Below, piece after piece: positions 24,230 through 44,716 of a DNA stretch of 64,000 bases. A model generated the notes under the pieces. That model was not told where the DNA came from. It saw only the letters and a list, made by a program, of their open reading frames with translations, and did not search any database. The first letter of the stretch is position 1, and every line of letters starts with the position of its first letter. The stretch lies in contig OZ245838.1 of the NCBI GenBank assembly GCA_965228735.1, positions 3,200,001 through 3,264,000 of the forward strand. The letters are read 5' to 3'. The position numbers and the translations under genes were made by a program. This stretch comes from Planctomycetota bacterium (lineage in GTDB: Bacteria > Planctomycetota > UBA1135 > UBA2386).

Positions 24230-24571
24230 GATCGGAGATCGAGGAAGACGTGAAAGAGACGGCCGGGCTCCTCCCCGGCTCTGCGAGCGAAGCAGAGCCG
24301 CCGCACCGTGCCCGATTCGACGCTCCTTCTCCGTGCTAGTGCGGGTTGCCGCTCAGGCAACCGGCGATTCGATGGAATCGAAGGCAACCGTCCTGGGCCC
24401 GGTTCTGGACGCCCGCAACGACCCGCAACGCCCCCGGGCGTCAAGCCAAGATCGCGGCAATCCCTCCGCACATTGGCTGCCACCCGAACCCCGCAACCTT
24501 CACGCGGGGCTCACCGCGTTCGTCGACGAGTCACGTTCTCTGGCGCTCTGACCGTTTCGGAGAACACACAC

Positions 24572-26644: not shown

Positions 26645-27235
26645 TCAGCCGCCGCCGCGCTTGAGCTCGACCACCTTGTCGGCCAGGCGCGGCAGCGCGC
26701 GGTGATAGCGCTTACGGGCGGCCTCGCCGGAGATGCCGAGCCGCTCGCCGACGGCTTCGAACTCGAGCTCGTCCCAGTCCCGCAGCCGGATCACGTCGCG
26801 GTCCTCGGGCGCGAGCAGCTCGATCGCGAGGACCACCCACTCGCGTCGCTCGGCCGCCGCCGCGTGCTGACTCGGACTCGAGATCGAACGCAGCGGCGGG
26901 TCGAGCTCGAGCACCGAATCGGTCGCGGTGCCCGCCTCACGACGGCGGTCGCGCTTGCCGCGGTGCAGGTGCCGGTAACGGTCGCGGATGTTGTTCTCGA
27001 CGATGCAGAGCAGCAGCCGGCAGAAGCGACTGCGGTCCGTCGTCGCGAAGCTCGGGCCGTGCACCAGCACTTCGAGCAGCGCCTCCTGCACGATGTCCTG
27101 CGTGTCACCGTCCGCGCGCACGACGGATCCCAGGCGACCGCGCACCTTCTGCTCGATCGACGGCAGCAGCTCCCGTACGAGCTCACCCAGCACCTGCGCG
27201 TCGTGCTCGACGCCGGCGCGATAGCGCTCCGTCAT
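26645..27235 (-). CDS. ECF RNA polymerase sigma-70 factor (kinase-associated)
   Basis: Region 2 DIVQEALL...IVENNIRDRYR; region 4 LAPEDRDVIRLRDW..LEFEAVGERLG...RKRYHRAL; 4-nt ATGA overlap with the kinase. Confidence 0.9.
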   Translation of the reverse strand: MTERYRAGVEHDAQVLGELVRELLPSIEQKVRGRLGSVVRADGDTQDIVQEALLEVLVHGPSFATTDRSRFCRLLLCIVENNIRDRYRHLHRGKRDRRREAGTATDSVLELDPPLRSISSPSQHAAAAERREWVVLAIELLAPEDRDVIRLRDWDELEFEAVGERLGISGEAARKRYHRALPRLADKVVELKRGGG

Positions 27236-30060
27236 CGCGCGACCTCACGCACGAGTTGCTGGAAGTCGGCGCGTTCGCGCAACGAGTCGAACTTCGGACT
27301 GCGAAGCAGGTGGATGACGCCGGTCGCGGACCCGCGGGTCAGACCCTGCAGCCAGAGGACGCAATTGCGGCGCAACTCCTCGACCCGTTCTGCCGACAGC
27401 GATTCGGTCTCCAAAGCGATCCGGGCCACGACCTCCGCGCAGACGCGGACGGACGTCACGTAACCCGGCCCGAACTCGATCGAGCGCTCGGCCGCGGCGA
27501 TCGCGCGCTCGGGATGCCCGAGCGCGGCCTCCGCCGCGGCGAGCTGCGAGTGATGGATCGCGAGGAACTGCCGAATGCGGGGATCGCCGGGCCGCCGGGC
27601 GTACGCCGCGCTCTGCAGCTCGATCGCCCGCGACGCGTGCGCGCGCGCTGCGTCGGGCTCCCCGAACGTGTTGTGCCAGCTCGCGAAGTTGCTGTGCGTG
27701 CCGCCGAGTTCCGTCAGGTGCGTCACGACGTCGGGCTCCGCCTCGTGCAGCGCCGTCTGCAGCGCGAGCGCGCGCTCGTACATCGGCCGCGCCAGAGCCG
27801 GGGCCATCGGCCGCCGCAGGAGATGGCAGTTCGCCAACTGCGCACAGGTCACGGCGAGCGCCATCGCATCGCGCGGCGCCGGTTCGTCGCTGCGGGCAAA
27901 CAGGTCTTCCCACAGAGCCCGCGCCCGCTCGAGCTCCGCGATCGCCTCGGGGTATCGTCGTTCGATCAGGTGCAGGCTGCCGATCCGAAAGAGGACCGCG
28001 GCCCGGGTACGCTGGTGGTTGGCGTCGCTCGGGAACTGCGCCGTCGCCGTCTCGATCGCGGCGCGGGCCCGATCGAACGCCGCGCGCGCCCCGGGGCGAT
28101 CGCCCTGCTTGACGGCCGCGATGCCGATGCCGAGCTGCTGCTGCGCGAGGAGATTCGGCTGCGCGGCGAGATCCGGCTGCGACCGTTCGAGTTGGCCGGC
28201 CGCGAGTCGCGCGCCGACTGCCTCGAACTCGTCCTGCGCTGCGGCCCATTGCCGGCGTTGCAGGTGCAACTTGCCCGTGACCACGTGCAGCTGACACCAG
28301 GCGAGCGCGACCGCCGGCAATGATTCGGACGTGACGCCTTCGAGCTCGCTGCGCGCGACGGCCAGTCGCTCGGTCGCGCGGTCGAGTCCCCCGAACGTGT
28401 CGAGCGCGAGGCGGGCTTCCAGAATCGCGAGCCGCGCGATCGCGAGCCGCGCGGCCTCCCCCCACCTGGCATCGGTGCGCAGCTCGCGCCAGATCGTGGC
28501 TGCGGCGCGGGCGTCCGCGAGAGCCCGCCGGTCGTACACCGAATCGTGAACGCGAGCTCGCGCGCTCAGCGTGCGCGCCGTCAGCGCGCGGGTCGCGGCC
28601 GCGGTGGCGTCGTTCTGCTCCAGCTCCGCGAGCGCGTCGAGGGCGGTCTGCAGCGGCGTGAGGGCGCGCTGCGGATCACCGAGTCGCGGATAGATCGCGG
28701 CGGCGTCGAGGATCGCCGTGACGAGCAGTCGGCGATGCGATGGTTCCAGGTGCGGGTCGGCGAGCCGCTCCTCACACAGCTGGACCGCCGCCTCGATCTG
28801 CTCGCCGTAACCCGGCTCGAGTTCGAGTTGCCGCGCCAGCCGTTCTTCGAGGACGTCGACCAACTGCGCGATCGCGTCGGCCGCCGTCGTCGCGGCAGCG
28901 CGCGTTCGTTCGCGCTGACCGGCGAGCTCTCGTTCGTGCCGTTGCTCGGCGATGCCCTGGATCACCGGAACGGCAATGGCGAGCCCGATCACGAGAGCCG
29001 CGACCAGCAGGAACATCGGGCGGCGGCGCACCCGCCGGCGCCAGGTATCGAGGTCCTGGGCGAGAGCCGCGGCGGACCGGTAGCGCTCCGAGGGGTCCTT
29101 TTCGAGACAGGTCGCGCAGATGCGCAGGAGCTCGCGCGGCACCTCGCCCCGCAGCTCAGCGACGGGCGCGGGGTCCTGCGCGACGATCTGTCCGAGCACG
29201 GCCGTCGTCGACGGGCCGTCGAACGGTCGCCGCCCGCTGAGCAGCTCGAAGAGCACGACGCCACACGAGAAGACGTCACTGGCCGGCGCCGCCGCGTCAC
29301 CGCGCGCCTGCTCGGGGCTCATGTAGTGGGGCGTGCCGACGAGACCGCGCCGTTCATGGCGCCGCGCCGCGCCGTCGGGCGCGCTCGCGAGCCCGAAGTC
29401 GAGCAGCCGCACGTCGCCATCGTCGGTGAGCAGGAGGTTGTGGGGCTTGACGTCGCGATGCACGACGCCCTCGCCGTGCGCGTAGTGCAAGGCTGCGGCG
29501 GCCGCCGCCACCGTGCGCGCGGCGAACTCGCAGCGCTCCCGTCGACCCGCGACCGGCAGGCCGTTCCGCAACAGCTCGTTCAACGGCGTGCCGTCGACGT
29601 GCTCCATCACGAAGTAGTGCACGCCGCGGCTCTCGGCGACCTCGAAGATGGGCACGATCCCCGGGTGACGCAGGTTCGCGGCTGCCGCGGCTTCGCGCCG
29701 AAAGCGTTCGATCTCGGCCGGCGTCCGGGTCAGCTCCGGGTGCAGCACCTTGATCGTGACGCGGCGATGCAACGAGGCCTGCGCGGCTTCGAATACGCGC
29801 CCCATGCCGCCTTCACCGAGCAGACGCAACAGCTCGTAATCCCCGAGGCGTTCGCCGGCCTCGATGCGCGCGTGCGCGGCCTGACTCTCGCCGACCGTCG
29901 TATCGCCCACCGGGTGCACCATCGGCTCGAGCAGCGGCCGCAGTTCGGCGTGGCGGGCGAGGAAGTCCTGCGGGGACAGGCCGGCGGGGTCCTCGCGCCA
30001 GGAGACGAACAGATCGACGGCGCGCTGCAGCTGCTCCAGCCGGCTCTCGGAGTTCGTCAT
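27232..30060 (-). CDS. Hanks-type Ser/Thr kinase + TM + TPR-like repeats
   Basis: GEGGMG, VTIK, HRDVKPHN, DFG, GTPHYMSPEQ, DVFSCG; TM MFLLVAALVIGLAIAVPVI; start trimmed to ATG 30060. Confidence 0.92.
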   Translation of the reverse strand: MTNSESRLEQLQRAVDLFVSWREDPAGLSPQDFLARHAELRPLLEPMVHPVGDTTVGESQAAHARIEAGERLGDYELLRLLGEGGMGRVFEAAQASLHRRVTIKVLHPELTRTPAEIERFRREAAAAANLRHPGIVPIFEVAESRGVHYFVMEHVDGTPLNELLRNGLPVAGRRERCEFAARTVAAAAAALHYAHGEGVVHRDVKPHNLLLTDDGDVRLLDFGLASAPDGAARRHERRGLVGTPHYMSPEQARGDAAAPASDVFSCGVVLFELLSGRRPFDGPSTTAVLGQIVAQDPAPVAELRGEVPRELLRICATCLEKDPSERYRSAAALAQDLDTWRRRVRRRPMFLLVAALVIGLAIAVPVIQGIAEQRHERELAGQRERTRAAATTAADAIAQLVDVLEERLARQLELEPGYGEQIEAAVQLCEERLADPHLEPSHRRLLVTAILDAAAIYPRLGDPQRALTPLQTALDALAELEQNDATAAATRALTARTLSARARVHDSVYDRRALADARAAATIWRELRTDARWGEAARLAIARLAILEARLALDTFGGLDRATERLAVARSELEGVTSESLPAVALAWCQLHVVTGKLHLQRRQWAAAQDEFEAVGARLAAGQLERSQPDLAAQPNLLAQQQLGIGIAAVKQGDRPGARAAFDRARAAIETATAQFPSDANHQRTRAAVLFRIGSLHLIERRYPEAIAELERARALWEDLFARSDEPAPRDAMALAVTCAQLANCHLLRRPMAPALARPMYERALALQTALHEAEPDVVTHLTELGGTHSNFASWHNTFGEPDAARAHASRAIELQSAAYARRPGDPRIRQFLAIHHSQLAAAEAALGHPERAIAAAERSIEFGPGYVTSVRVCAEVVARIALETESLSAERVEELRRNCVLWLQGLTRGSATGVIHLLRSPKFDSLRERADFQQLVREVAR

Positions 30061-30485
30061 CGCGGGGCAGTAGACGCCCCGGGTAGCCCCGTTGTTCGCC
30101 GATTCCACGCCATTCGAGAAATCACCGCCAAGGTGTCCGCTGGCCCGTCTCCCGGTCGCCGACTTCGCGGCCTGACGTTGTGAACTCGGCCGGACGAGGT
30201 CGCGAGTCATGCCGCCGGGGTCGCGGAGTTCGGAGGCCGCCGGGCGCGATGACTCGCCCCCGACGTGCGACGGCACCAAGGCATCGCGCCATGCCCGGGC
30301 ATTGACGGCAAACCGATAGTGACGCGCCTCATCGCCCGGCCCGAAATCACCCGGGACGCGACACCCGGGCTGGCAAGATCGCAGCAACGTGCGACGATAC
30401 GCGTCCTCCTCGTCGACCCGCTGCGGCCATCGTTGCCGGTCGGCGAACGTTCAGCCCCATGCCGGCCAACGTTGGCCACCATCCC

Positions 30486-31616
30486 ATGAAAGCAACCATT
30501 GCAGCGTCTCTTCTCGCTCTCTCGACTGCGGTAACCGCACAGTGCGTTCCAGTTCCGCAAGGCACCCTGGACCCCGCCGCGCCGTTCGACAACTGGTCGG
30601 CAGCGACGCCGATCGGCTTCGCGTTCCCGTTCCTGGGCACGCCCTTCACCGACTTCTACTACTCGGACCACGGTCTGATCGCGCTGACCAACGGCGGCAC
30701 GCCGGCGGCGCCTCCGGGCAACGCGCAGGTCTGGGACCCGGGTTCGGTCGGGCCGTTCAACTTCCAGGGCATGGGCTTCGCCGGCTTCGGCGCGAACGTC
30801 ATCATGCCGTACTGGGGTGACCACACGACCGGCGCCGACGGCATCTACATCGACAACACGAGCGGCACGCACTGCACGATCACCTGGTCGGAGAACGAGC
30901 CGTACAACGCCTTCTCGGCCGGCGCGTTCACGGTGCAGCTGACGCTGTACCCGGATGGCCGCTTCACGATCATCCAGGACAGCCGCTGCAACAACACGAG
31001 CTCGAGCTACGGCCCGGTCACGTCGGTCGTCGGCGTCTACGAGGACGGCAGCACGATCCCCGGCTCCTCCGACTTCAGCGCGGGCACGGTCGCCTCGACC
31101 GGCGGCACGTGCTTCGAAGAGTTCGTCGGGCCCGGCCCGGTGAACTCCAACACCCCGGATCCGAGCTACGACCTCGGCAACACGATCACCGAGTTCATCC
31201 CGGCGCCGCCAGGCTGGGTCGTCACCAACGGCACGCTGCCGTGCGCGTCGACCACGACGAGCGGCACGGCCTGCGGCGGTCTCGCGCACGCCGCCGTCAA
31301 CGAGCCTCAGCTCGGCGGGTCGTACGAAATGGAGACGACGAACGTGCCGGCCGGCTCCGCGATCGGCGCGACGCTGATCGGATTCGGCAACCCGATGCTG
31401 CCGCTCGGCGGCCTCGGCTTCCCGGGCTGCACACAGTACGCGGACAACACGGCCGTGATCCTCGAGATCAGCCCGGCCTCGTCGTTCATCGCGAGCATGA
31501 CGATTCCGTTCGACGCGACGTTCAACGGTCTCGTGATCTTCTCGCAGGGCATGGCCCTCACGCCGCCGGCATCGCTCGCCGCGGCGAACGGCGCGGCCGG
31601 CACGATCGGTCACTGA
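30486..31616 (+). CDS. secreted NIDO-like domain protein with shared C-terminal domain
   Basis: Signal ...TAVTA|Q; IGFAFPFLG..F..FY.SDHG, IMPYWGD, TITW, FTVQLTLYPDG; C domain GTAC...PQLG...LGFPGC...IP...G..IFSQ...AANG. Confidence 0.75.
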   Translation: MKATIAASLLALSTAVTAQCVPVPQGTLDPAAPFDNWSAATPIGFAFPFLGTPFTDFYYSDHGLIALTNGGTPAAPPGNAQVWDPGSVGPFNFQGMGFAGFGANVIMPYWGDHTTGADGIYIDNTSGTHCTITWSENEPYNAFSAGAFTVQLTLYPDGRFTIIQDSRCNNTSSSYGPVTSVVGVYEDGSTIPGSSDFSAGTVASTGGTCFEEFVGPGPVNSNTPDPSYDLGNTITEFIPAPPGWVVTNGTLPCASTTTSGTACGGLAHAAVNEPQLGGSYEMETTNVPAGSAIGATLIGFGNPMLPLGGLGFPGCTQYADNTAVILEISPASSFIASMTIPFDATFNGLVIFSQGMALTPPASLAAANGAAGTIGH

Positions 31617-33271: not shown

Positions 33272-35605
33272 ATGAAGTCACTCGCGCTCGGTCTGGTTCC
33301 CGGCTCGCTGCTCCTCGTGGCCGGTCTGTCCGCCCAAGGCCTCCCCGAATCGATCCAGTCCGACCTGCAGCCGGCCACGTCGGCCTTGCCGCGCGTGCCG
33401 ATCCACACGGCGGCTCCCGAGGGCGTCACGGCCTACGGCACCTGGGCTGCCGGCGACGCCTACAAGTGCTCGTTCCACGACGGCATGACGTTCGTGCCCT
33501 ACCTCGGCGACTACCCGCAGAACCAGCCGTGGTCGTGGCGGACGACTTCGGTCCGCGCCGGCGAGGTCGAGCTGCTCGCCGCGAACGAGGACGGCCCGCT
33601 GCCGGCCGCGCACTGGCACGACGAATGGCGCTACGAGTATCGCATGGGTGCGTTCACCGAAGCCTACGACGTGCTGCACGAGGGTCTGGAGCAGACGTTC
33701 GTCGTCACCCAGCTGCCGGCCGCCGGCGACCTCGTCGTGCGCGGCGCGGTGACGTCGGATCTCTCGACGCGGGACGCGGCCGCGGCGCAACAAGAACTGA
33801 CCTTCGCCGATCGCGACGGGCTCGCGATCCTGCGCTACGGCCAGGCGCTCGCGTTCGACGCGGCCGGCAACACGACGCCGGTGACGACAGCGTTCGCCGG
33901 CGGCGAGATCACGCTGACCGTCCCCGGCGCCTGGCTCGCGCACGCGACGCTGCCGGTGACGGTCGACCCGTTGCTGACCCCCGCGATCGTCGGCTCGGCG
34001 CTCGCGAAGATCACGGACATCGGGCACGACGACCGCGCCACGACGAAGAACGTGATGTACGCGATCACGATGCGGGTCTCCAACTTCGACGACGACGTGC
34101 GGGCCTACCTGTCCGACCACGACCACACGAACAGCAACTCGGTGTTCGCGGACATCACGTCGGGGTGGGACAGTGACGACGCCTCCTGCGCGTTCGTCGG
34201 TGGCACGGATCGCTGGGTCATCGCGCTGCGCCGCTACTTCCCGACGTGGGGCATCCGCCGCAGCCACCTGCGGGCGCACCTGCACGACAGCGCCGACCCC
34301 CAGTTCCTCACGAACGTGATCTACATGAGCACGCCGACCGGTCACAACGACTGGCGCCCGGACGTCGGCGGCGTCGAGGGCAACGCGAGCGGCAACAACG
34401 CGCTCGTCGTGTTCCAGCGCGAGGACAACGCGATCTCGCCGTACACCGGCAACTTCCGCGACACGGATACGAGCGCGACGTGGGCCGTGCTGCTCGAGAC
34501 CGCGTCCCCGAGCGGCTCGTTCGGCACGCCGACGCGTTACCTGAGCGGACCATCGCAGGACGCGGAACGGCCGTCGGTCCAGCCGATGGCCGAGGGTGGC
34601 TCGCAGTTCTTCTGGGTCGTCGGCGCGCAGCATTACGCCAGCTTCCTGCCGGACGACGACTGGGACGTGTTCGTCGCGCGCATCGACCAATCGGGCAACC
34701 TGCTGCCGGGCTACTGGAAGCCCGAGATGCACGCCGCCGACACGCACCACCAGCTCGGCGTGCAGCTCGACGGCCAGGACGGACGCTACCTCGCGTGCTA
34801 CTCCACCGTGCAACGGCCGACGACGCCCGCGAAGTACGGCAACGTGCGCGGGGAACGTCTCTGCGTCGAACGCTTCGACTGGAGTCAGAGTTCGTCGGCG
34901 ACGCCCGTGACCTACCCGATGGTCGAGATCGAGACCGCGAGCACGCCCGTGTTCGAACCGGGTGGGGTCGCGTTCGACAGCAACGATCGCTCGCACTTCG
35001 CCATCGGCTACCGCGACATGACAGCGACGCTGCGGGCGGTCAAGTACGCGCGCGTCGGCTACACCGGCAACGTCACCGAAGGCCCAGCGTTGCTCTTCGC
35101 AGCGGCCGGCATGACGCCGTCGAACGCGAGCTGCATCTACATCGGCGATCTTCGTCGCTTCGCGTTCTGCTACAGCGCGCCGCTCGCGACGCCGCGGATC
35201 TACGGCCGTTCGCTCGCGGACGCCCCGGCGCCGCCGGTCAGCGCGACCGGCTTCGGCTGCAGCCCGGCCACCATCAGCTGGAGCGGCCGCCGCCAGATCG
35301 GTTCGGAGTTCGAGACGATCCGCATCCAGGGCGCCGGCAACGGCGCGGGCAACTTCATGCTCGTGTCCCTCGCCAGCGCCGATCAGCTGATGATCTACCC
35401 GGGCGTCGCGAGCGGCTGCCGCCTGCTCGTCGACAACGGTCCGGCGTTCCTCGGAACGATGCCGTTCCGCGCCGGCAACAACGCGTCGTGGCGCTTCCCG
35501 CTGCCCGAATGGCTGCCGACCACGACGCTCTACTTCCAGGACTGGATCCTCAGCGGCCACTCGTTCGAGAGCTCGCGCCGGCTCGCGGTCACCGTCGTCA
35601 AGTAG
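33272..35605 (+). CDS. large secreted protein with shared C-terminal domain
   Basis: Signal ...AGLSA|Q; N domain with EAYDV..GLEQTF...LRYG...DAAG...PVTVDP; C domain GFGC...QIG...SGC...LP...LYFQ...SSRRLAVTVVK. Confidence 0.8.
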   Translation: MKSLALGLVPGSLLLVAGLSAQGLPESIQSDLQPATSALPRVPIHTAAPEGVTAYGTWAAGDAYKCSFHDGMTFVPYLGDYPQNQPWSWRTTSVRAGEVELLAANEDGPLPAAHWHDEWRYEYRMGAFTEAYDVLHEGLEQTFVVTQLPAAGDLVVRGAVTSDLSTRDAAAAQQELTFADRDGLAILRYGQALAFDAAGNTTPVTTAFAGGEITLTVPGAWLAHATLPVTVDPLLTPAIVGSALAKITDIGHDDRATTKNVMYAITMRVSNFDDDVRAYLSDHDHTNSNSVFADITSGWDSDDASCAFVGGTDRWVIALRRYFPTWGIRRSHLRAHLHDSADPQFLTNVIYMSTPTGHNDWRPDVGGVEGNASGNNALVVFQREDNAISPYTGNFRDTDTSATWAVLLETASPSGSFGTPTRYLSGPSQDAERPSVQPMAEGGSQFFWVVGAQHYASFLPDDDWDVFVARIDQSGNLLPGYWKPEMHAADTHHQLGVQLDGQDGRYLACYSTVQRPTTPAKYGNVRGERLCVERFDWSQSSSATPVTYPMVEIETASTPVFEPGGVAFDSNDRSHFAIGYRDMTATLRAVKYARVGYTGNVTEGPALLFAAAGMTPSNASCIYIGDLRRFAFCYSAPLATPRIYGRSLADAPAPPVSATGFGCSPATISWSGRRQIGSEFETIRIQGAGNGAGNFMLVSLASADQLMIYPGVASGCRLLVDNGPAFLGTMPFRAGNNASWRFPLPEWLPTTTLYFQDWILSGHSFESSRRLAVTVVK

Positions 35606-35677
35606 GGCGACGAGGCAGCGGGTTCGGTGAGGGATTTCGTGGTGGGGAACGGGCAGCCGATCCCGTTCCCTGCCGAC

Positions 35678-36700
35678 ATGAGACGAATGCTCGGATCCCC
35701 CGGCCGGACGGAGCGGCGGCTCGCCATCGCGCTGGTTGCCGGCCTCGCCGTCACGTTGCCGGCCGAACGCGGCCGCACGCAGGGGCCGCCGCGCCCCGGT
35801 GTCACGGCGGACTGGGGGCAGATCGAGCGCCGGATCGCCTGGCACGGTACGTGGGCGGGCGCGCTCGAGGCCGCCGCCGCGACGAAGCGCCCGATCCTGC
35901 TGGTCGCCGCCGCGCCGCACTGCGGACTCGTGCCGGGGATGTGGTGACCCGGCAAGCAGGAGATGGACAGGAGTTACCTGTCCGACCCCGCGGTCGTCGC
36001 CGTGTCGCGTGATTTCGTCTGCGTGAGGCTGCTGACCTACGAGAACGCAGCCGAAGCCGAGATGTTGCAGCAGGTGTTCCGCGGCCGCGACGGCCTCGAG
36101 AACTCCGTGTTCGCGCTGCTCGACCCCGAGGGCCGGCGGCCGCTCGCGCGCACGGGTCGCAGCCCGTCGTTCGCGTTCCGCGATGCCGCGGCGTTGGCCG
36201 TGAAGATGGGTGGAATCGCCGAGCGCTACCCGGGCCGCAGGAACGCGAACGAGCAGCTCGACCTGCCGCTGCTAGTCGACGTGCGCCGCGCGCTCAACGT
36301 CGCGGCCGCGGATCAGCAACAGCTGATCATCGTCTGCGGCCAGGGCAAGGCGCGCGATCAGCTCCAGTCCGAACTGAGCCGACTGGCGTGGTCCGACGAC
36401 CTCGTCGGCCGCTTTCTCTACGTCGCCGCGAGCGACCGGACCGACTGGGACACGATCCGGGGCAGCGCGGATCGCCCGGAGTCCGGGCTGCTGGTCGTGC
36501 AGGCCGGCGAGTTCGGCACGACGGGCCGCGTCGTCGCCACGTTCGCCGGGGTGCCGAGCCAGCAGGAACTGCTCGCGGTGCACGACGAGCGCGAGGCCAA
36601 GGCCATCGACACCCAGCAGCTGCGGCGCCGCGGCATCCGCCGGGGTCTGCGCTGGCAGACCGAGATTCCGGTCACGGACCGCGGCGGCCGGCGCCCCTGA
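35678..36700 (+). CDS. putative exported thioredoxin-fold selenoprotein (in-frame TGA 35945-35947 read as Sec90; 340 aa)
   Basis: Track ORFs 35627..35947 and 35963..36700 are in the same frame, separated only by the TGA and five sense codons; joined sequence IAWHGTWAGALEAAAATKRPILLV...C.......W-U-PGKQEMD...FVCVRL follows the thioredoxin-like WCxxC..M pattern. Confidence 0.75.
35948..35995 (+). promoter_or_regulatory. candidate bacterial SECIS element
   Basis: GGACAGG-AGTTA-CCTGTCC (35965-35983); loop starts 24 nt after the UGA with G at loop position 2. Confidence 0.65.
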
Positions 36701-36834: not shown

Positions 36835-39531
36835 GTGAGCAGCTCCTCCGAATCCAGCCCCTCGACCGTCGCGATCGAGTTCCTCACCGTGTTCCTGCAG
36901 GACCGGGAGGACGGCAGGAAGCGCACGCTCGAGGAGTACCAGGCGATGTTTCCGCACGCCGAGGCGGTCATCGCCCGGGAGTACGACGCCGTCATGGCAC
37001 CGGGCGCGGCGACGCGGGACGCCGCCCTCGAGGCCGTCTCCCGGGCCGATCGCTACGAGGAGATCGAGGTCGTCGCGCGCGGCGGCATGGGGACGGTGCA
37101 CCGGGTGCGCGATTCGGCGCTCGGCCGACTCGTCGCGATGAAGCTGCTCGGCGACGGCAAGGGCAGCACGACGCTGCCGGCTCCCGAAGCGCTGTCCCGC
37201 TTCCTCCACGAGGCCCGCATCACGGCGCGCCTCCAGCACCCGAGCATCGTGCCCGTTCTCGACCTCGGCGTGGACGCGCAGCAGCGGCCCTACTACACGA
37301 TGCCGCTGATCGCCGGCGAGAACCTCGCGGCCTGGATCCGGGGCAACGACGTCGCCGACCCGCGCTGCCTCGCGCGCGGCGTCGCCATCCTCGAACGCGT
37401 GAGCGACGCGATGGCGCACGCCCATTCCAGGCACGTGATCCATCGGGATCTCAAGCCGGCGAACGTGATGCTCGACCACGACGGCGCGGTCTACGTCGTC
37501 GACTGGGGCGTCGCGCGGGCGCGTGACGACGAGCACGAAGCGGTCCACCCCGATCGCGCCGGAACCAACGGACGGGTCGATGCCTCGCGGCAACGATCGA
37601 CGGGGTCGGCGATCTTCGCGGGCGTCCGCACCCAGGCCGGCGACGTCGTCGGCACCCCGGCCTACATGGCGCCGGAGCAGGCGCGGGGCGAAGCCGTCGA
37701 CGAACGCAGCGACGTCTACGCGCTCGGCGCGATCCTCTATCACCTGCTGACGCGACGCCCGCCGTACGCCGGGCAGGCCGACACCGCGACGCCCGAACTC
37801 GTGCGCCAGGGCCCACCGACCGCGCTCGCGATCTGCGCGCGTACCGCGCCGCCGGCGCTCGCGGCGATCTGTGAACGTGCCATGGCGCGAACGGCGGCGG
37901 ACCGGTATCCGACGGCGCGGGAGTTCGCGGCCGAGCTGCGCGCGTTCCTCGACAATCGCGTCGTGCAGGCCTACGCGACGGGGCCCGTCGCCGAGCTCTT
38001 CACGTGGACCCGGCGCAACCGCGGCCTCGCGGCCGCGAGCCTGCTCACGGTTGCGGCCCTCGTCGCCGGCATTGGAGTGAGTCTGCAGCAGAAGTTCGCG
38101 GCCGACGCGAACGCGAACCTCGCGGAGCAGAACCTCGAGATGGCGTTCGCCGCGGCCGAGGGCCTACTCGTCGAGTTCGGTGAGCACACCCTGGCGAACG
38201 ATCCCGCTGCCGACCCGCTCCGTCGGGCGCTCGCCGACCGCGCGCTCGCGTACTACCGGCGCTTCACGGAGCTGCGCGGCGATGACCCGCGCGTGCACGA
38301 GCTCGTCGCACGATCGCACTTCCGAATCGGCCTGCTCGAGGCCCGGCTCGGCCAGAACGAGCGCTCCACAGCGGCGCTCGAGCGGGCGCACGAGGCCTAC
38401 AGCGCACTCGCGCGCGCATTGCCGGACGTGCCGGCCATCCGCAACTGGCTCGCCAGGGTCGAGACCGAACAGCAGATCCACACGCTGCGCCGCGGCGCGT
38501 TGGACGAGGCCGCCGCGGGCTTCCGCGCGATCATCGGCCGGGCCGAGGAAGCGCTCGCCGCGATCCCGGCGACGGCGGATCGGGAGGAGACCGAGATCGA
38601 GCTGCTGCACACGATCGCGTGCGCGAAACACAACCTCGGACTCGCGCTCATTCGGAAGCGCCAACCCGAGGCGGCGCTTTCGGTGGCGAAGGAGAAGGTC
38701 GCGATCGGGCAACGGCTCGTGGCCAGGCAGCCGGACAGTCCGCTCGCGCAACACCGTCTCGCGACCGGCCAGCTGCAGGTCGCGTCCGTTCTGCGCGACC
38801 TCGAGCGTTTCGAGTCCGCGGACGCGGTGCTCGCCGCAGCGTCGAAGCGCATCGGTCCGATCGTCGAGGCGATCGACAACCGCGGCCTGCGGACCGTGCT
38901 GGCCGAGATCGAGAACCTGCGCGGCACGATCCTGCGGCAACTGCGACGCCCGACGGATGCGATCGCGGCGTTCGAACGCGCGATCGCGGTGCAGCAACGC
39001 CTCGTCGCCGCGAATCCGAACGTGCTGGACCACCAGACCCACCTCGCGGGCTCGTTGTGCAACCTCGGAGTGATGCGGCTCGGCCGCCGACAGATCGAGG
39101 AGGCGCACGACCTGATGCAACGGGCGCTCGAACACATCCGGCGCGCGCTGGCGATCGACCCGAACGCGCCGGTCGCGCGCGACTACCGCCGCATCATCGC
39201 GCGCGAGTTCAACAACGTCGGCTTCGCCCTGGCGCTCTACGACGACATCGCGCGCCAGACGCTCGAGTTCGTGGGCGAGCAGCCGGACGAACACGACTGG
39301 TTCGCGGCCTACGCGCTCGCCGGCTGCACGACGCTGGCGGCGCGCGACGCGACCCTGTCCGATGCGGAGCGCTCCGAGAAGGTCGGCACCTACGGCGACG
39401 CCACGATGCGTCATCTCGAGGCCGCGAAGGCGAGCAACACGCTGCAGCCAGGACGGCTCGGCCACGAGACGTTCGCCGGGCTGCGCGACCGCGAGGACTT
39501 CCTCGAGTTCCTGGCCGAACTCGGCCGGTAG
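36835..39531 (+). CDS. Hanks-type Ser/Thr kinase + TM + TPR-like repeats
   Basis: ARGGMG, VAMK, HRDLKPAN, DWG, GTPAYMAPEQ, DVYALG; TM LAAASLLTVAALVAGIGV. Confidence 0.92.
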   Translation: MSSSSESSPSTVAIEFLTVFLQDREDGRKRTLEEYQAMFPHAEAVIAREYDAVMAPGAATRDAALEAVSRADRYEEIEVVARGGMGTVHRVRDSALGRLVAMKLLGDGKGSTTLPAPEALSRFLHEARITARLQHPSIVPVLDLGVDAQQRPYYTMPLIAGENLAAWIRGNDVADPRCLARGVAILERVSDAMAHAHSRHVIHRDLKPANVMLDHDGAVYVVDWGVARARDDEHEAVHPDRAGTNGRVDASRQRSTGSAIFAGVRTQAGDVVGTPAYMAPEQARGEAVDERSDVYALGAILYHLLTRRPPYAGQADTATPELVRQGPPTALAICARTAPPALAAICERAMARTAADRYPTAREFAAELRAFLDNRVVQAYATGPVAELFTWTRRNRGLAAASLLTVAALVAGIGVSLQQKFAADANANLAEQNLEMAFAAAEGLLVEFGEHTLANDPAADPLRRALADRALAYYRRFTELRGDDPRVHELVARSHFRIGLLEARLGQNERSTAALERAHEAYSALARALPDVPAIRNWLARVETEQQIHTLRRGALDEAAAGFRAIIGRAEEALAAIPATADREETEIELLHTIACAKHNLGLALIRKRQPEAALSVAKEKVAIGQRLVARQPDSPLAQHRLATGQLQVASVLRDLERFESADAVLAAASKRIGPIVEAIDNRGLRTVLAEIENLRGTILRQLRRPTDAIAAFERAIAVQQRLVAANPNVLDHQTHLAGSLCNLGVMRLGRRQIEEAHDLMQRALEHIRRALAIDPNAPVARDYRRIIAREFNNVGFALALYDDIARQTLEFVGEQPDEHDWFAAYALAGCTTLAARDATLSDAERSEKVGTYGDATMRHLEAAKASNTLQPGRLGHETFAGLRDREDFLEFLAELGR

Positions 39532-39543
39532 CAGGAGTCACCG

Positions 39544-40212
39544 ATGGCAGAATCACACGATCCTCAGGTCAGCGGCACCGAGACCGGCAACGGATCGGCG
39601 ATGCCGTCCGACGAGATCACGAGCCTGCACGTTCGCCGCGCCGTCGACGGCAACCAGGCGAGCGTCTCGTGGCTCGTGGAGCGTCTCAATCCGCTCCTCC
39701 TGATGCAGGCGCGGTGGCGCATGCGCGGCCAGCTCGCCGGCATCTGCGAACCTGCCGATCTCGTGCAGGAGGCCTGGATCGTCCTGCTGCCGCGACTGCC
39801 CGAACTCGAGCACCGCGACGGCCGGCTGACGCCGGTGCTCCTGCGGTTCCTCACGTCGTCGATCGTTCGCAAGCTGCACAACCTGCTGCGGCGCGAAGCC
39901 CGCCGCCGGATCCACAACGGCAACGACGACGACAACCGCAGCGATCCCGACCCGATCCACCCCGCGACCGGCGTCGTCTCGGGCATCGTCCGAGGCGAAC
40001 GCCAATGCCAGGTCCGCGACGCGCTCGACCGCCTGACGGCCGACGACCGCGCCGCGATCGTGATGCGGGGCATCGAGCAGCAGGAACTCCCGAACGTGGC
40101 CGCCCACTTCGGAGTCACGGTCAAGGCGATGTCCAAGCGCTACACCCGCGCGCTCGCGCGGCTGCGCGAGCGCCTGCCCGAATCAGTCTTCGCCGAACTA
40201 GCGGACGAGTAA
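39544..40212 (+). CDS. ECF RNA polymerase sigma-70 factor (kinase-associated)
   Basis: AGGAG RBS; DLVQEAWI; ALDRLTADDRAAIVMRGIE...VAAHFG...KRYTRAL. Confidence 0.88.
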   Translation: MAESHDPQVSGTETGNGSAMPSDEITSLHVRRAVDGNQASVSWLVERLNPLLLMQARWRMRGQLAGICEPADLVQEAWIVLLPRLPELEHRDGRLTPVLLRFLTSSIVRKLHNLLRREARRRIHNGNDDDNRSDPDPIHPATGVVSGIVRGERQCQVRDALDRLTADDRAAIVMRGIEQQELPNVAAHFGVTVKAMSKRYTRALARLRERLPESVFAELADE

Positions 40213-40255: not shown

Positions 40256-42793
40256 TCAGTAGTCGCCGATCGTGACTTCGAGGCCGTTGCTGGCCGCGAG
40301 TCCGTAGGGGTTGAGGCCCGGCACGAACGCGCCGGCCTGGGCGAAGATCGGGAGTCCGAGGAAGCTCGGGTCGCCCGGCATCGTGAGGCTGTAGATCGGG
40401 TCCGGGAACGGCGGCAGCATCAGCAGCGACACCGCGCCACCCGTATAGGCCACGCAGCCGGGCGCGTTCGAGCCGAGCGGCAACGCCGGGTTCACGAAGT
40501 CGAGCTGCACGAAGCCGAGCACGACGCCGTTTGGCAGGCCGGTGAGGCGGAGGTTCCAGTCACGGCAGAGGACCGGCCGCGTGTAGGACGTCAGCTGCGG
40601 GCCGTTGCAACCCGAGCCGACCGTCTGCACCGTCGCCGGCGTGACCTGGGTCGCGTTCGTCAGGCACTGCAGCGTGAAACGGCCGTCCCACGGCGAGCCC
40701 GTCGCGTTCCAGACCTGGACGATGACCTGCATGCCGGACGGACCGTTGCCGTCGAACGACTCGATCGAAGCGTAGGTCGAGTCGAGCGTGTGACCGCTGA
40801 CCTTGACGGTCGGGTTCGCGGTCGGGTCGATGTCGGGCAGGTTGACGCGGTAGCGCCCGGTCGAGAGGCGATCGATCGTCTCGGCCCCGCTCGGGCCGAA
40901 CCGGCCGTTGCTGTCCGTGTAGGCACTGTGCGGCGTGTAGCTCGTCGCGGTCGGCTGGTCCGCCCAGACGTGCGCGCCGGAGCCGTGCTCGACGGCGATC
41001 GGCGCCGCGACCTCGCTGTAGCTCACGATGAACCGGCCATCCGTGAGGTTGCCGAAGACGTCCCGAACGCGAATCAGCGCGACCAGGTCGCCCGTCCCGC
41101 TGGACCACGACGTCACCTTCGGGCGCGTCAGCGACGTGCCGTACGGAGTGACCTGGACGTTGCCGTACTCCGGCCCCGTGGACCCGAGGTTCGGGAACGT
41201 CACCGTGTAGGAGCCGATCGCCGTCCGCGCGACCGTGGGCGCACCCCGATCACCGTTCCAGCTGTAGGCGCCCAGCGGCGTGTAGCTGGACGCCGTCGCG
41301 TTGTTGGCCCAACAGTAGGCCTCGCGCGCGGTCGGGTTGCCGCCGTAACGCCACTGCATCGTGAAGTCGCGATCGCCGGCCGGGTTGCCGAACGCGTCGA
41401 ACAGCAGCACGTTGACCTGGGCCTCGTCGCCGATCTGGAACCAGCTCTTGACGACCGCCGTGTGGTTGCCATCGACGGCCGTGAGGTGCGGCACGCCGCC
41501 GACCGACGGTGCGCCGCCCGGCACGTGAACCGTGAACGCGTTGCTCGAGCTGCCCCGCGTGACGTTCAACGGATCACCTTCGGTCGAGAACTGCTGCCCC
41601 GCTGCCGGCACGAACGACTGACCCTGACCGAGCGGTTCGACGTTGGCCCACGCGACGATCGGCGTCGCCGCCGGACGGTTGGTCAGGAACAGCAGCACGA
41701 ATCGCGTATCCGTCGCACCCCCGGTTGCATCGAAGGTCGTGACGATCACGTTCGTCCCGCCGCAGCCATCGCTGTCCCACGAGTCGACGGTCGCATAGTC
41801 GGCCCCCGAACCCTGCGCGGTGACCAGCGCGGTCGCGCTGCCCGACGGCGCGACGTTGGGCAGGTTGACCAGGTAGCGCCCGACACCGAGGCGTCGCACG
41901 GTCTCGGCATCCGGCGGCCCCTCGCGGCCGTTGCTGTCCGTGTACGTGCCGTTCGGCCGATAGAACGACCCGATCGGATCGTTGGCGTAGACGTACGCGC
42001 CGGAGCCATCGCGCTCGTTGATCGGCGCCGCGGACTCACAATACGAACAGATGAACCGCGAGTCGGTCGGCTGACCCGTCATGTCGAAGCAGCGCACGTT
42101 CACGACCGTGTCGCCGGCGCTGTTGCCCCAGTTGAACACCTTCGCGCGGACCGGCAACGCGCCGTACGGCGTGATCTCGACGCAGCCGCGCTCGTCACCG
42201 AGAGCCGCCAGCCCCGGGAACCGCACCTGATACGTCCCCACGGCACTGCGCGTGACCGTCGGGTTGCCGCGATTGCCGTTCCAGCTGTAGCTCGTCGACG
42301 GCGTGTAGCTCGCGGCCGTCGCGTTGTTCGCGAAGACGTAGGCCTCGCGGCGCGCGAACGGACCTTCGTAGCGCCAGTGCACGGTGAACCTGGCATCGTT
42401 GGCCGGACCGCCGAGGCTGTCGTAGAGCGCGACGCGAGCCTGGACATCACCAGTCGCGGTGAGCCAGCTCTGCACGACGGCCGTGTGGTTGCCGTTCAAC
42501 GCCGTCGCGTGCACGCAGCCGCCAATGGCCGGCGCGGCGCCCGGAATCGTCACCTGGAACTCGTTGTTGCTCGCGCCGCGGGCCACGAGGATCGTGCCGC
42601 CGGCGGTCGAACACTGGTAGGAAGTCGACGGCGTGAAGACGAGGCCCTGCCCGGCGGGCGAGACCCGCGCCCACGCAACCTCTTGCGCCGTGACATCGGG
42701 AGTCGTCGCGCCCAACGCGGCAGCGACCAGGAATGCGAGGCCACACCGACGCAGCGGCGGACCGGAGGAGAGCCGGAGATCAGGATCGTTCAT
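40256..42793 (-). CDS. secreted protein with six ~110-aa beta repeats in (ABC)2 order plus shared C-terminal domain
   Basis: Signal ...DVTA|Q; internal duplication (EVAWARV/IVAWANV; REAYVFANNA/REAYCWANNA; GSGAYVYAND/GSGAHVWADQ); C domain GSGC...PVL...APGC...MPGDPSFLG..IFAQ...ASNGLEVTIGDY. Confidence 0.85.
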   Translation of the reverse strand: MNDPDLRLSSGPPLRRCGLAFLVAAALGATTPDVTAQEVAWARVSPAGQGLVFTPSTSYQCSTAGGTILVARGASNNEFQVTIPGAAPAIGGCVHATALNGNHTAVVQSWLTATGDVQARVALYDSLGGPANDARFTVHWRYEGPFARREAYVFANNATAASYTPSTSYSWNGNRGNPTVTRSAVGTYQVRFPGLAALGDERGCVEITPYGALPVRAKVFNWGNSAGDTVVNVRCFDMTGQPTDSRFICSYCESAAPINERDGSGAYVYANDPIGSFYRPNGTYTDSNGREGPPDAETVRRLGVGRYLVNLPNVAPSGSATALVTAQGSGADYATVDSWDSDGCGGTNVIVTTFDATGGATDTRFVLLFLTNRPAATPIVAWANVEPLGQGQSFVPAAGQQFSTEGDPLNVTRGSSSNAFTVHVPGGAPSVGGVPHLTAVDGNHTAVVKSWFQIGDEAQVNVLLFDAFGNPAGDRDFTMQWRYGGNPTAREAYCWANNATASSYTPLGAYSWNGDRGAPTVARTAIGSYTVTFPNLGSTGPEYGNVQVTPYGTSLTRPKVTSWSSGTGDLVALIRVRDVFGNLTDGRFIVSYSEVAAPIAVEHGSGAHVWADQPTATSYTPHSAYTDSNGRFGPSGAETIDRLSTGRYRVNLPDIDPTANPTVKVSGHTLDSTYASIESFDGNGPSGMQVIVQVWNATGSPWDGRFTLQCLTNATQVTPATVQTVGSGCNGPQLTSYTRPVLCRDWNLRLTGLPNGVVLGFVQLDFVNPALPLGSNAPGCVAYTGGAVSLLMLPPFPDPIYSLTMPGDPSFLGLPIFAQAGAFVPGLNPYGLAASNGLEVTIGDY

Positions 42794-42958
42794 GCCCGCC
42801 CATGTCGCGCGCCCGGCGTCGGCGACGATGAACTCGAAAAACCCGGACGGCCAGAACCCGCGTACCGGGGGCGAAGGCCCTTCACAGGGCAGGTCCATCC
42901 CCGTCGACGCTATCCTGGAACGAAGTCCGCAACCGCCCTCCCCGTTCCACCGACCCTC

Positions 42959-44716
42959 GTGCAACTCGCCCGCCTCTGTTTCGCGTTCGCGGCCTTCGGC
43001 ACCGCTGGCAGCGCCCAAACCGTCGAGATCGTCCGTGACCTGCTGCCGAACGGCAGCGGCGCAGCGTACTGGTCGCTGATCGGGCACCTGCCCGGGCAAC
43101 GCGAGGTTCTCGTCGCGCTCGACGACGGCATCCACGGGTTCGAGTTGTGGCGCACGGACGGCACGGCCGCGGGCACGACGCTGTTCTATGAGTTCGCTCC
43201 CGGACCAGCCGGCACGTTCTTCCGCGGCGGCACGGTCCTCACCGATCACACCTGGTTCGTGCTCGACGTCGGCGCGGGCGAAGAACTGTGGCGCACCGAT
43301 GGCACGGTAACCGGCACGACCCGCGTCAGGACGGCGGGTGCCCTCGGCGTCGCCTCGATCAGCCGCCCGCTCGCCCACCTGGACGGCCGCTTCCTGTTCA
43401 ACACGGACAACGCGCTCTGGAGCACCGACGGGACGCACGCCGGCACCGTCAACCTCGGTTGCCCGCCCGCCTATCGCGTCGACCCAGCCGGCGCGTTCCT
43501 GCTCGTGCACGCCACGCCCGACGACATCTGGCTCACCGACGGCAACCAGGCGACGCTGCTGCGCCAGAACGCCGACGTTCGTTTCGCCGATGGAAGGGTG
43601 CTGTTGAACGAGCGCATCGTGTCCGGTGGCTCGACGGCTGCGAACCGCTTCACGATTCTCAGCGACCCGAGCCAACCGTCGGTCGTCATCAACAGCACCG
43701 TCGTCATCGCGCTGAGTCTGCCGTCGACGGTCCTGCTGCTCGACGTCAGCTTCGCCGGGTCGAGTCTCATGGCGTGGGACGGCACCGGCCCACCGCAGGT
43801 GCTGCGGACGTTCCCTTTCCTCGCGCCACTCGCGCGTCGCATCGGCGACCGCTGGGTGTTCTCCGCGTTCGATCTCACGCTGGGCGAAGAGCCGTGCTTC
43901 ACCGACGGCACCGTCCAGGGCACGCAGATCCTCGACCTCTACCCGGGCCCCGCGGGTTCGCAGCCCGACATCGTCGGCGAACTCGACGGCAAACTCCTGT
44001 TCTGGGCGCTGACGCCGGGAGCCGGCGGCGAACCCTGGGTGACCGACGGCACGATCGCCGGCACGACCCTGTTCGGTGAGACGGTCGCCGGCCCTGCCGG
44101 CACGCTGCCCGATCCCTACGGCGCGCCGATGCAGGCGGGCGACCGCCGACTGCTCTTGTCCGTGAGCGGGCGACCCTGGCTCGTCGGCGGCCCTCAGGGT
44201 CTGCAGCAGGTCGGCGGCGTGAATCTGCTCTCCGCGTGGCGGGCCGTGCCGATCGGCGACACGTGGGTGTTCCTCGCCGACGACGGCGTGCGAGGGCTCG
44301 AGCTCTATCGCCTGCGCACGACGGGCACCGCGATCCCGTTGCCGGACTGCGCCGAGTTCGACCTGTTCGGTGACGGTCGCGAGTTCACCGTCGACGACCC
44401 GGTCCTCGGTGCGACCATCCATGCCCGCGCAACGGGTCTCCAGCCGACCGACCTCGGTGTCGCCATGCTCGGCCACCCGGCAATGTCGCCGGCCTACCTC
44501 GGCGACAACTGCTATCTGCAATTCGACCCGACGGTCGCTATCCCGCTCGCCGTCATCGCCGATCGCGGCAACGGCTCCTGGTCGCTGCCGTTCTACGTTA
44601 CGAACACACCGGGGCTCACTGGCATCGAGCTCGTCGCGCAACCGCTGTTCCTCGACCCGGGAACGACGCCCGGGTGGGCCGGCGGGCGGGCGATATGGCT
44701 GTCGCCCGGACGGTAG
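42959..44716 (+). CDS. secreted ELWxxDGT-repeat protein with shared C-terminal domain
   Basis: GTG start, signal ...TAGSA|Q; ELWRTDGT, EPWVTDGT repeats; C domain DPVLG...C...NTPGLTGIELVAQ. Confidence 0.85.
   Translation: MQLARLCFAFAAFGTAGSAQTVEIVRDLLPNGSGAAYWSLIGHLPGQREVLVALDDGIHGFELWRTDGTAAGTTLFYEFAPGPAGTFFRGGTVLTDHTWFVLDVGAGEELWRTDGTVTGTTRVRTAGALGVASISRPLAHLDGRFLFNTDNALWSTDGTHAGTVNLGCPPAYRVDPAGAFLLVHATPDDIWLTDGNQATLLRQNADVRFADGRVLLNERIVSGGSTAANRFTILSDPSQPSVVINSTVVIALSLPSTVLLLDVSFAGSSLMAWDGTGPPQVLRTFPFLAPLARRIGDRWVFSAFDLTLGEEPCFTDGTVQGTQILDLYPGPAGSQPDIVGELDGKLLFWALTPGAGGEPWVTDGTIAGTTLFGETVAGPAGTLPDPYGAPMQAGDRRLLLSVSGRPWLVGGPQGLQQVGGVNLLSAWRAVPIGDTWVFLADDGVRGLELYRLRTTGTAIPLPDCAEFDLFGDGREFTVDDPVLGATIHARATGLQPTDLGVAMLGHPAMSPAYLGDNCYLQFDPTVAIPLAVIADRGNGSWSLPFYVTNTPGLTGIELVAQPLFLDPGTTPGWAGGRAIWLSPGR

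Follow-up and report, generated by a model that had tools for sequence, protein, structure and literature searches.

The locus examined here raises the question whether a TGA triplet within an otherwise open reading frame ends a gene or is translated as selenocysteine (Sec) and, if so, what kind of protein results. It lies in a stretch of 64,000 nucleotides, which we refer to as the window and to which all coordinates refer unless stated otherwise. The frame starting with the ATG at 35678 contains a single internal TGA at 35945-35947, corresponding to codon 90, and ends with the TGA at 36698-36700, yielding a product of 340 amino acids. Translation table 11 splits the gene into two ORFs (35627-35947 and 35963-36700). 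A preliminary description had proposed that both ORFs share one frame and would be separated by standard gene callers; the sequence is as quoted there, and table 11 returned both ORFs. The features of the locus are compiled in Table 1.

Table 1. Features of the selenoprotein gene and its product, in window coordinates.
Feature	Position	Strand	Basis
Single gene, 340 aa, Sec at codon 90	35678..36700	+	Reading frame, homologues
Predicted signal peptide, residues about 1-34	35678..35779	+	Sequence, hydropathy, homologues
Domain 1, thioredoxin fold of the DsbD-gamma/DsbH/ERp18-AGR type (Pfam Thioredoxin_7), residues about 50-187	35825..36238	+	Pfam, model
Cys82 (TGC), invariant candidate resolving Cys within the 8-residue inserted loop that precedes W-U	35921..35923	+	Alignments
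In-frame TGA (Sec90) at the thioredoxin nucleophile position, W-U-P-G-K	35945..35947	+	Conservation, alignment, contigs
Bacterial SECIS hairpin, 8-bp stem, loop AGUUA 24 nt past the UGA	35964..35984	+	Folding, covariation, model in PMC13188914
Cys115, invariant, second core strand (F-V-C-x-R); probably buried	36020..36022	+	Alignments, model
N142-S143, invariant Asn followed by Ser/Thr replacing the thioredoxin cis-Pro	36101..36106	+	Profile alignment, counts
R161, invariant in Sec forms, R or K in Cys forms	36158..36160	+	Alignment
Domain 2, thioredoxin fold without W-C/U motif (non-catalytic, b-like), residues about 194-305	36257..36592	+	Model
Conserved C-terminal tail W-x-T-x-I-P-V-T-D, modelled with good confidence	36653..36679	+	Alignment, model

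A sequencing or assembly error as origin of the TGA was ruled out by contigs bridging the triplet and by its conservation across loci. Contigs from three of four sequencing runs (X2, X5 and X8, from three studies) bridge codon 90 without a differing letter, with the proviso that X2 or X5 may itself be the source of the assembly. In the fourth run (X11, a coral metagenome) the contig covers the TGA and ends 17 nt later, and was left out of the count. The preliminary description had suggested checking the TGA against raw reads; independent contigs read TGA as well.

Codon 90 corresponds to a TGA in all of 190 related loci (about 146 distinct cores), a DNA sample that is biased towards the Sec-type subfamily, with scan patterns built from Sec-type sequences. 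The sample consists of 30 loci from genomes of the phylum, TGA occurring in 30/30, and of 160 loci from alignment-based contig scans that covered the best 80 of 190 genome-contig matches and the best 80 of at least 241 confirmed metagenome matches. Within the latter set, TGA was found in 149/149 loci anchored by the first pattern; the remaining 11 also have TGA, ten being read by a looser pattern and the last directly. Two loci (L156 and L158) were scored by eye, and a second regular-expression match in L207 (CTC) proved spurious and was not counted. Six further relatives outside the 190 likewise agree with TGA. When one sequence served as the query, scans of genome and metagenome contigs gave no matches, in contrast to the alignment-based scans. 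Among the matches kept, the labels were mostly Planctomycetota and Verrucomicrobiota, with single bins of Omnitrophota, Vulcanimicrobiota and Pseudomonadota. The protein was matched in 38 of 301 sampled genomes of the phylum (36 strongly), and a profile search located the family in 49 of 401 genomes and in 10 of 41 close relatives. Two family copies, both with the TGA, occur in each of eight genomes (G183, G248, G263, G364, G144, G231, G116 and G417). One of the G116 copies contains two extra TAG stops, and in G113 the gene is split across frames. The gene is widespread in Planctomycetota and Verrucomicrobiota, and protein databases hold 317 clusters of it (50% identity, E ≤1e-30).

Among 1.84 billion proteins, 147 of the best 150 representatives start past the site and accordingly carry neither signal peptide nor active site, while the three that span it all read W-C there. 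Databases therefore store the family as an anonymous C-terminal half that is invisible as an enzyme. A search with one of the spanning Cys proteins returned 213 proteins; 118 new ones out of 120 listed were examined and, together with four found earlier, gave 122 full-length records. Cys is present at positions 90, 82 and 115 in 122/122 of these, which are known as protein records only, without codons. They collapse to 10 representatives (68% identity), with Fimbriimonas sp. as the one taxon label available. Most Cys forms no longer keep the residues encoded by the hairpin (D-R-S-F-L), a drift to be expected where a SECIS element has become dispensable. An unrooted FastTree phylogeny placed the Cys forms at three points among the Sec forms, one of them a long branch; upon removal of the long branch a single Cys clade was not rejected (AU test, p 0.80; no root). 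The preliminary description had stated that homologues never having TGA or Cys at this position would speak against Sec. Homologues have TGA in all loci and Cys in the full-length protein records; the existence of a large Cys-type subfamily had been missed.

A SECIS-like hairpin with a perfect 7-bp stem (GGACAGG/CCTGTCC) and the loop AGTTA had also been pointed out downstream of the TGA, and both folding and covariation confirmed it. The stem is formed by 35965-35971 and 35977-35983, the loop by 35972-35976, and an extra U-G pair lengthens the stem to 8 bp. The hairpin alone has a folding energy of −12.3 kcal/mol. The segment +1 to +51 folds at −21.2 kcal/mol (z −2.75), with none of 200 shuffles being equally stable; the signal was weaker in folding windows of 66 and 101 nt (z about −1.8). 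The hairpin at this locus agrees with every constraint of the consensus bSECIS model in the legend to Fig. 2A of PMC13188914, namely a hairpin 16-37 nt downstream and a loop of 3-9 nt with G-U first. In 30 aligned sequences, 93.8% of the cells pair and five of the eight pairs have changed on both sides; none of 500 shuffles reached the observed pairing, and controls slid along the alignment gave 25-49%. Across 146 distinct genes, six of the eight pairs hold in 134-145 sequences and the outer pair in 96, and the inner pair (+20:+34) is kept in 115 and broken in 31. The hairpin is weak (above −7.5 kcal/mol) in 10 of these genes, and the loop reads AGTTT in 99 and AGTTA in 27.

Codon usage under the hairpin follows the same pattern. 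Of 14 sequences with GAG or AAG as codon 98, 12 encode Leu101 by TTG and not by CTG, which keeps the pair without altering the amino acid. The real codons of 136 of the 146 genes outfold 95% of their synonymous recodings (median z −3.5), compared to 12 of 146 for a downstream control region. Arg98 is AGG in 103/110 sequences versus 5/137 for Arg111, and Ser99 is AGT in 133/133 versus 3/140 for Ser110. Both codons had been noted as uncommon, and in 3158 long coding-like ORFs of the source genome AGG indeed accounts for just 2.1% of Arg and AGT for 4.7% of Ser codons. These rare codons occur at positions 98 and 99 because they are forced by the hairpin. We concluded that the hairpin is an RNA structure under selection. 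An Rfam scan yielded no real match, a scan for promoters and terminators found no sites, and a look-up of expression listed no RNA data set containing the locus.

The source genome encodes the Sec machinery, which the preliminary description had named as a point to check: selA (454 bits, cut-off 268), selB (337 bits, cut-off 242), selD (367 bits, cut-off 125) and a tRNA-Sec (selC) with the anticodon TCA (76.6 bits, cut-off 47) all score above the curated cut-offs, and selD itself has an in-frame TGA. That description had named three kinds of observation that would speak against Sec, concerning homologue codons, reads and Sec machinery, and none of the three was made (0/3). TGA is the main stop codon, terminating 2108 of the 3158 long ORFs, and is therefore not reassigned genome-wide; a reading as Trp was thus ruled out. 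Use of Sec is frequent in the phylum, selA being present in 221 of the 301 sampled genomes. Within that sample, 37 genomes carry the gene (the 36 strong matches and G247); 36 of them have selA and the 37th has selB, and since kin are not independent, this co-occurrence is a support for Sec decoding and not a test of it. Taken together, the conserved TGA, the selected hairpin and the gene's homologues indicate that UGA at codon 90 is almost certainly decoded as Sec.

With regard to the protein, we consider export likely from sequence. A hydropathy heuristic detected a hydrophobic N-terminal 11-mer in 131 of 140 homologues versus 18 of 146 in an internal control region, and six of the nine homologues without it were inspected; in all six an extra domain is present, with a signal-like segment ahead of it and thus closer to the N-terminus. 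A strict twin-arginine motif was present in none of the 140 homologue N-termini. Cleavage would occur before Q35, judging from homologues that read A-x-A followed by Q. The earlier proposal of a 340-aa Sec protein with a signal peptide thus stood as far as the frame is concerned, whereas the signal peptide is a prediction from the heuristic and the homologues.

An AlphaFold model of residues 48-340, calculated with 30 sequences (pLDDT 92.8, pTM 0.91), displays two thioredoxin folds. Domain 1 reaches 29.8 bits with Pfam PF13899 (Thioredoxin_7; gathering threshold 27). As modelled, it superposes on 3f9u, an exported DsbD-like domain of Bacteroides (Z 12.1, rmsd 3.0, 124 aligned), as well as on DsbH (Z 11.3), ERp18 (Z 10.7), and DsbD-gamma and AGR2 (both Z 10.4). 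The modelled domain 2 superposes on thioredoxin (Z 9.2, rmsd 2.7, 97 aligned) and has no W-C motif, in line with the second, degenerate thioredoxin-like half that had been proposed. The ESM Atlas contained unnamed clusters only, with Thioredoxin_7 over part of one.

A profile alignment matches W-U-P-G-K with W-C-G-A-C of ERp18 past an insertion of 8 residues; with an E value of 0.6 it is weak alone, and it agrees with the fold match. Both together place U90 where the nucleophile is expected, K93 at the resolving position and C82 within the insertion. U at the nucleophile and Lys at the resolving position had already been assigned in this way, as had the Cys eight residues upstream of U90, which proved to be invariant: C82 is kept in 83/83 Sec and 10/10 Cys representatives, and the spacing between C82 and C115 across the TGA is fixed in 145/145 sequences. 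In the 83 Sec representatives, position 93 is never Cys (K 77, Y 3, F 2, M 1) and position 143 is never Pro (T 70, S 12, F 1); a profile-profile alignment pairs S143 with the Pro of N-N-P in the VPGU family (probability 95). Invariant in the same set are P80, C82, G87, W89, P91, C115, R117, E122, N142, R161, P197, G244, G280 and W326. Position 81 is divided between His (69 of 146 genes) and Gln (65). Judged from the fold, R161 would face the groove of the active site. The lost cis-Pro and the invariance of C115, N142 and R161 had escaped the preliminary description.

In four loci of one lineage (L023, L025, L123 and L175), a CxxCH cytochrome c domain follows the signal peptide and precedes domain 1. 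It matches Pfam PSCyt1 in the two loci that were tested, and this fusion fits export and periplasmic electron transfer. Other extra domains in the family are EF-hand-like (P0079, P0274) or short and helical (L105, L112, L116). A search for long fused forms of 568-2000 aa found none, which is weak evidence for their absence.

Based on these results, the locus is almost certainly one Sec gene, and we consider it probable that its product is a likely exported two-domain selenol reductase in which U90 attacks and C82 resolves. SelB would bind the in-frame hairpin and deliver Sec-tRNA(Sec) to UGA90, which is the strongly supported step, and the signal peptide would direct the product to the periplasm. 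U90, placed by the fold at the start of the active-site helix, would be the nucleophile acting on an oxidised substrate; from sequence and model, a redox-catalytic role of this residue is very probable. The invariant C82 of the inserted loop would then form a Se-S bond with U90 across seven residues. Position 93 being Lys, there is no UxxC, and C82 would therefore be the one to resolve; judged from the alignments, its chance of being the resolving partner is a little better than even. C82 could alternatively be structural, paired with C115, or metal-binding. The exchange of cis-Pro for Thr/Ser and the conserved N142, R161, K93, R117, E122 and E126 suggest a dedicated substrate rather than general disulfide exchange, and the polar pocket would thus accept either one partner protein or a small compound, oxidised sulfur or peroxide in nature. 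Domain 2 would serve as a binding or scaffold module. Re-reduction would run via a DsbD-type membrane relay, and the source genome encodes a DsbD membrane domain.

Three alternatives accept Sec and assign it a different task. The protein might be a hydroperoxide reductase in which U90 is oxidised to a selenenic acid that C82 resolves, i.e. a peroxidase of separate origin built on a DsbD-gamma-like scaffold. This reading coincides in part with the selenol reductase and names peroxide as the substrate, and we regard it as unlikely. The invariant N142, just before the cis-Pro position, sits where glutathione peroxidases presumably keep their catalytic Asn, and no GSHPx family gene was found in the 93%-complete source genome. 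In peroxiredoxins, too, cis-Pro is replaced, according to the available part of PMC2757866, but by Arg and not by Thr/Ser as here. Moreover, the available part of PMC2757866 describes a helix-strand insertion after the second core strand in the GPx/peroxiredoxin group, carried by all Prx and GPx, whereas the model runs through strand 67-72, helix 77-86 and strand 97-101 without it. There was also no Pfam match to Prx or GPx families, and several Prx/BCP-like Sec candidates already exist in the genome.

Slightly less probable still is a periplasmic selenoprotein that uses U90 and C82 for binding or chaperoning a soft metal or metalloid (Cu, Hg, Zn, As), without redox cycling. Two conserved chalcogen ligands within one loop would suit such a role, as would Thr/Ser at the cis-Pro position in 82 of 83 Sec representatives. 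Cis-Pro is stated in the available part of PMC2757866 to be more conserved than CxxC, to likely aid the binding of polypeptide substrates and possibly to prevent metal binding, and many Sec sites are predicted metal ligands according to the available part of PMC13188914. However, there is no invariant His or third ligand nearby, position 81 alternating between His and Gln, and no metal-transport or resistance gene recurs in the vicinity; the invariant Asn, Arg and Glu rather suggest catalysis.

A general periplasmic disulfide isomerase or chaperone resembling the PDI a-b module, in which U90 would be a nucleophile of the monothiol type and C82 would be structural, appears improbable. The order of an active and an inactive domain is that of PDI, and the top Foldseek rows are a-b arrangements of PDI and ERp44 (E 4e-5), although at a TM of about 0.27 and an rmsd above 15 the domain arrangement differs. 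The cis-Pro that likely aids polypeptide binding is absent, and the number of invariant polar residues exceeds what a general foldase needs. Finally, a true stop separating two coupled genes, one for a short peptide that is exported and one for a protein of 245 aa that starts at ATG 35963 and stays in the cytoplasm, or TGA read as Trp, has next to no probability: codon 96 is ATG in 119 of 146 genes and most database representatives start past the site (147 of the best 150), but position 96 offers no start codon in 27 of the 146, variation in codons 91-93 is almost confined to third positions (entropy 0-0.3 versus 1.3-1.4 bits), every internal stop is a TGA whereas the genuine gene ends are TAG in 55, TGA in 53 and TAA in 34, C82 and C115 keep their spacing across it, unbroken Cys forms exist, and Trp is contradicted by the use of TGA as a stop in two-thirds of the long ORFs (2108/3158).

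The selenol reductase thus remains the preferred reading. A bolder version of it, which we put forward tentatively and with somewhat less than an even chance of being correct, is that the protein represents a new catalytic class of thioredoxin-fold selenoenzyme. Such an enzyme would have dropped the CxxC partner and the cis-Pro, recruited a loop Cys (C-x7-U) and formed an Asn/Arg/Lys pocket for a small-molecule substrate in the planctomycete periplasm, fed by cytochrome c in some lineages, and would be one of about 25-30 Sec genes in this genome.

Nothing in the gene neighbourhood points to a substrate. The gene is flanked by an exported-looking protein of 777 aa without confident Pfam match and by a pair consisting of a Ser/Thr kinase-TPR gene and an ECF sigma factor. 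Across the family loci no neighbour is common to different lineages, and none of the neighbours in the window recurs. Sulfatases, which are common in these phyla, occur near 29 loci in all orientations. Genes for a DUF3500 protein (21 loci) and a dioxygenase (20 loci) are located downstream in groups of close kin only, and the largest neighbour cluster turned out to be an antisense frame of the selenoprotein gene itself. The window contains two Ser/Thr kinase-TPR genes within 14 kb (26645-30387 on the minus and 36835-40212 on the plus strand), each directly followed by an ECF-type sigma factor. Large proteins without confident Pfam match are encoded at 24308-26506, 30459-31616, 33272-35605, 40256-44641 and 40790-44716; some of them look exported and apparently share a Gly-Cys-rich C-terminal segment. 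Such proteins are typical of the lineage. The ORFs 40256-44641 (minus strand) and 40790-44716 (plus strand) overlap on opposite strands, each being coding-like over only part of its length.

In the source genome as a whole, a bSECIS-type hairpin was found at 41 of 488 coding-like TGA junctions, of which about 25-30 look like real selenoproteins by eye; the filter was home-made and misses some, e.g. the first TGA of the VPGU gene. The candidates include SelD, Prx, BCP, four W-U-x-P-C redoxins, two deiodinase-like and two AhpD-like proteins, MsrA, several U-x-x-C metal-binding-like domains and many exported thioredoxin folds. Further hairpin-bearing candidates are located on C1 at 3065085 (+), 5872224 (−), 3484699 (+), 6929513 (+), 2546238 (+), 5497385 (+), 5150736 (+) and 5458926 (+), in repeat-propeller-like and thioredoxin-like contexts. 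The genome also encodes a true member of NF041383 (C1:6693479-6694357, minus strand; locus L041) in which TGA occurs in frame twice, once within V-P-G-U-x-x-C and once within T-U-F-W, the latter being MsrA-like in sequence; both TGAs are present in all four aligned members of that family. If these assignments are true, Planctomycetota would hold a large, mostly uncatalogued exported selenoproteome, and the present family adds to a picture of predicted Sec-rich envelopes in marine and freshwater planctomycetes. This may be awkward beside the statement, in the available part of the review PMC13188914, that selenoprotein-rich bacteria are mostly anaerobes.

The family is real and widespread and apparently uncatalogued. 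It may be among the candidates of Deng et al. 2026, a set reportedly composed of unvalidated selenoprotein candidates from 44,000 genomes. Our literature search found no description of a W-U-P-G-K/C-x7-U family; the families of Haft and Tolstoy 2025 were compared by means of Table 1 of PMC13188914 and NCBIfam 20.0. That table, covering 119 families, lists neither a C-x7-U nor a W-U-P-G-K motif. In NCBIfam 20.0 (June 2026) no model came near its cut-off for the locus protein or for 11 homologues, the nearest being VPGUxxT type 2. BSepDB collects previously reported families only, according to the available part of PMC13326102. The active site departs from thioredoxin rules in three ways at once, and its chemistry is directly testable, since natural Cys versions can be expressed without Sec machinery.

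Compared with known bacterial selenoproteins of the SelB/bSECIS type, nothing in the decoding is different: they share the in-frame UGA, the downstream hairpin, which lies at 24 nt here, the Cys homologues and the Sec machinery. The protein family, in contrast, lies outside the 119 of Table 1 in PMC13188914. Decoding is ordinary, and the family and its active site are apparently what is new. Thioredoxin_7 (PF13899), the C-terminal domain of DsbD, DsbH and ERp18/AGR2 are related by a score above the Pfam cut-off, Z values of 10-12 and the place of the nucleophile. Unlike these, the present protein has Lys instead of Cys at +3 and thus neither CxxC nor UxxC, a Cys-bearing insertion of 8 residues before the Trp, Thr/Ser in place of the cis-Pro, a second, inactive thioredoxin domain and a conserved C-terminal tail. 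With the PDI a-b module and ERp44 it shares an active thioredoxin domain followed by an inactive one, but the geometry between the domains differs in the model (TM about 0.27), identity is 13%, the nucleophile is Sec and there is no cis-Pro.

The VPGUxxT proteins (NCBIfam NF041383, type 2, and NF041382, type 1; OS_HP5) have a homologous N-terminal domain (hhalign probability 95 over 101 columns), are likewise exported, have V-P-G before Sec and co-occur in the same genomes. Their members, however, read V-P-G-U-x-x-C and keep the cis-Pro in N-x-P, whereas the present family reads V-P-G-x-W-U-P-G, and the four aligned type 2 members have a different second domain with a second TGA. Membership in NF041383 was ruled out by a score of 16.4 bits against a cut-off of 275, the 11 homologues all being far below as well, and that in NF041382 by the absence of the locus from its matches. 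To the Trx7/PDZ selenoprotein (NF041199) the homologues show a weak N-terminal similarity of 12-24 bits over about 65 positions. Membership in this family was also ruled out, the locus protein giving no match and the homologues reaching at most 23.5 bits against a cut-off of 300. The motif listed for NF041199 is CxxU combined with a PDZ domain, whereas the protein described here contains no PDZ domain and its domain 2 adopts a thioredoxin fold.
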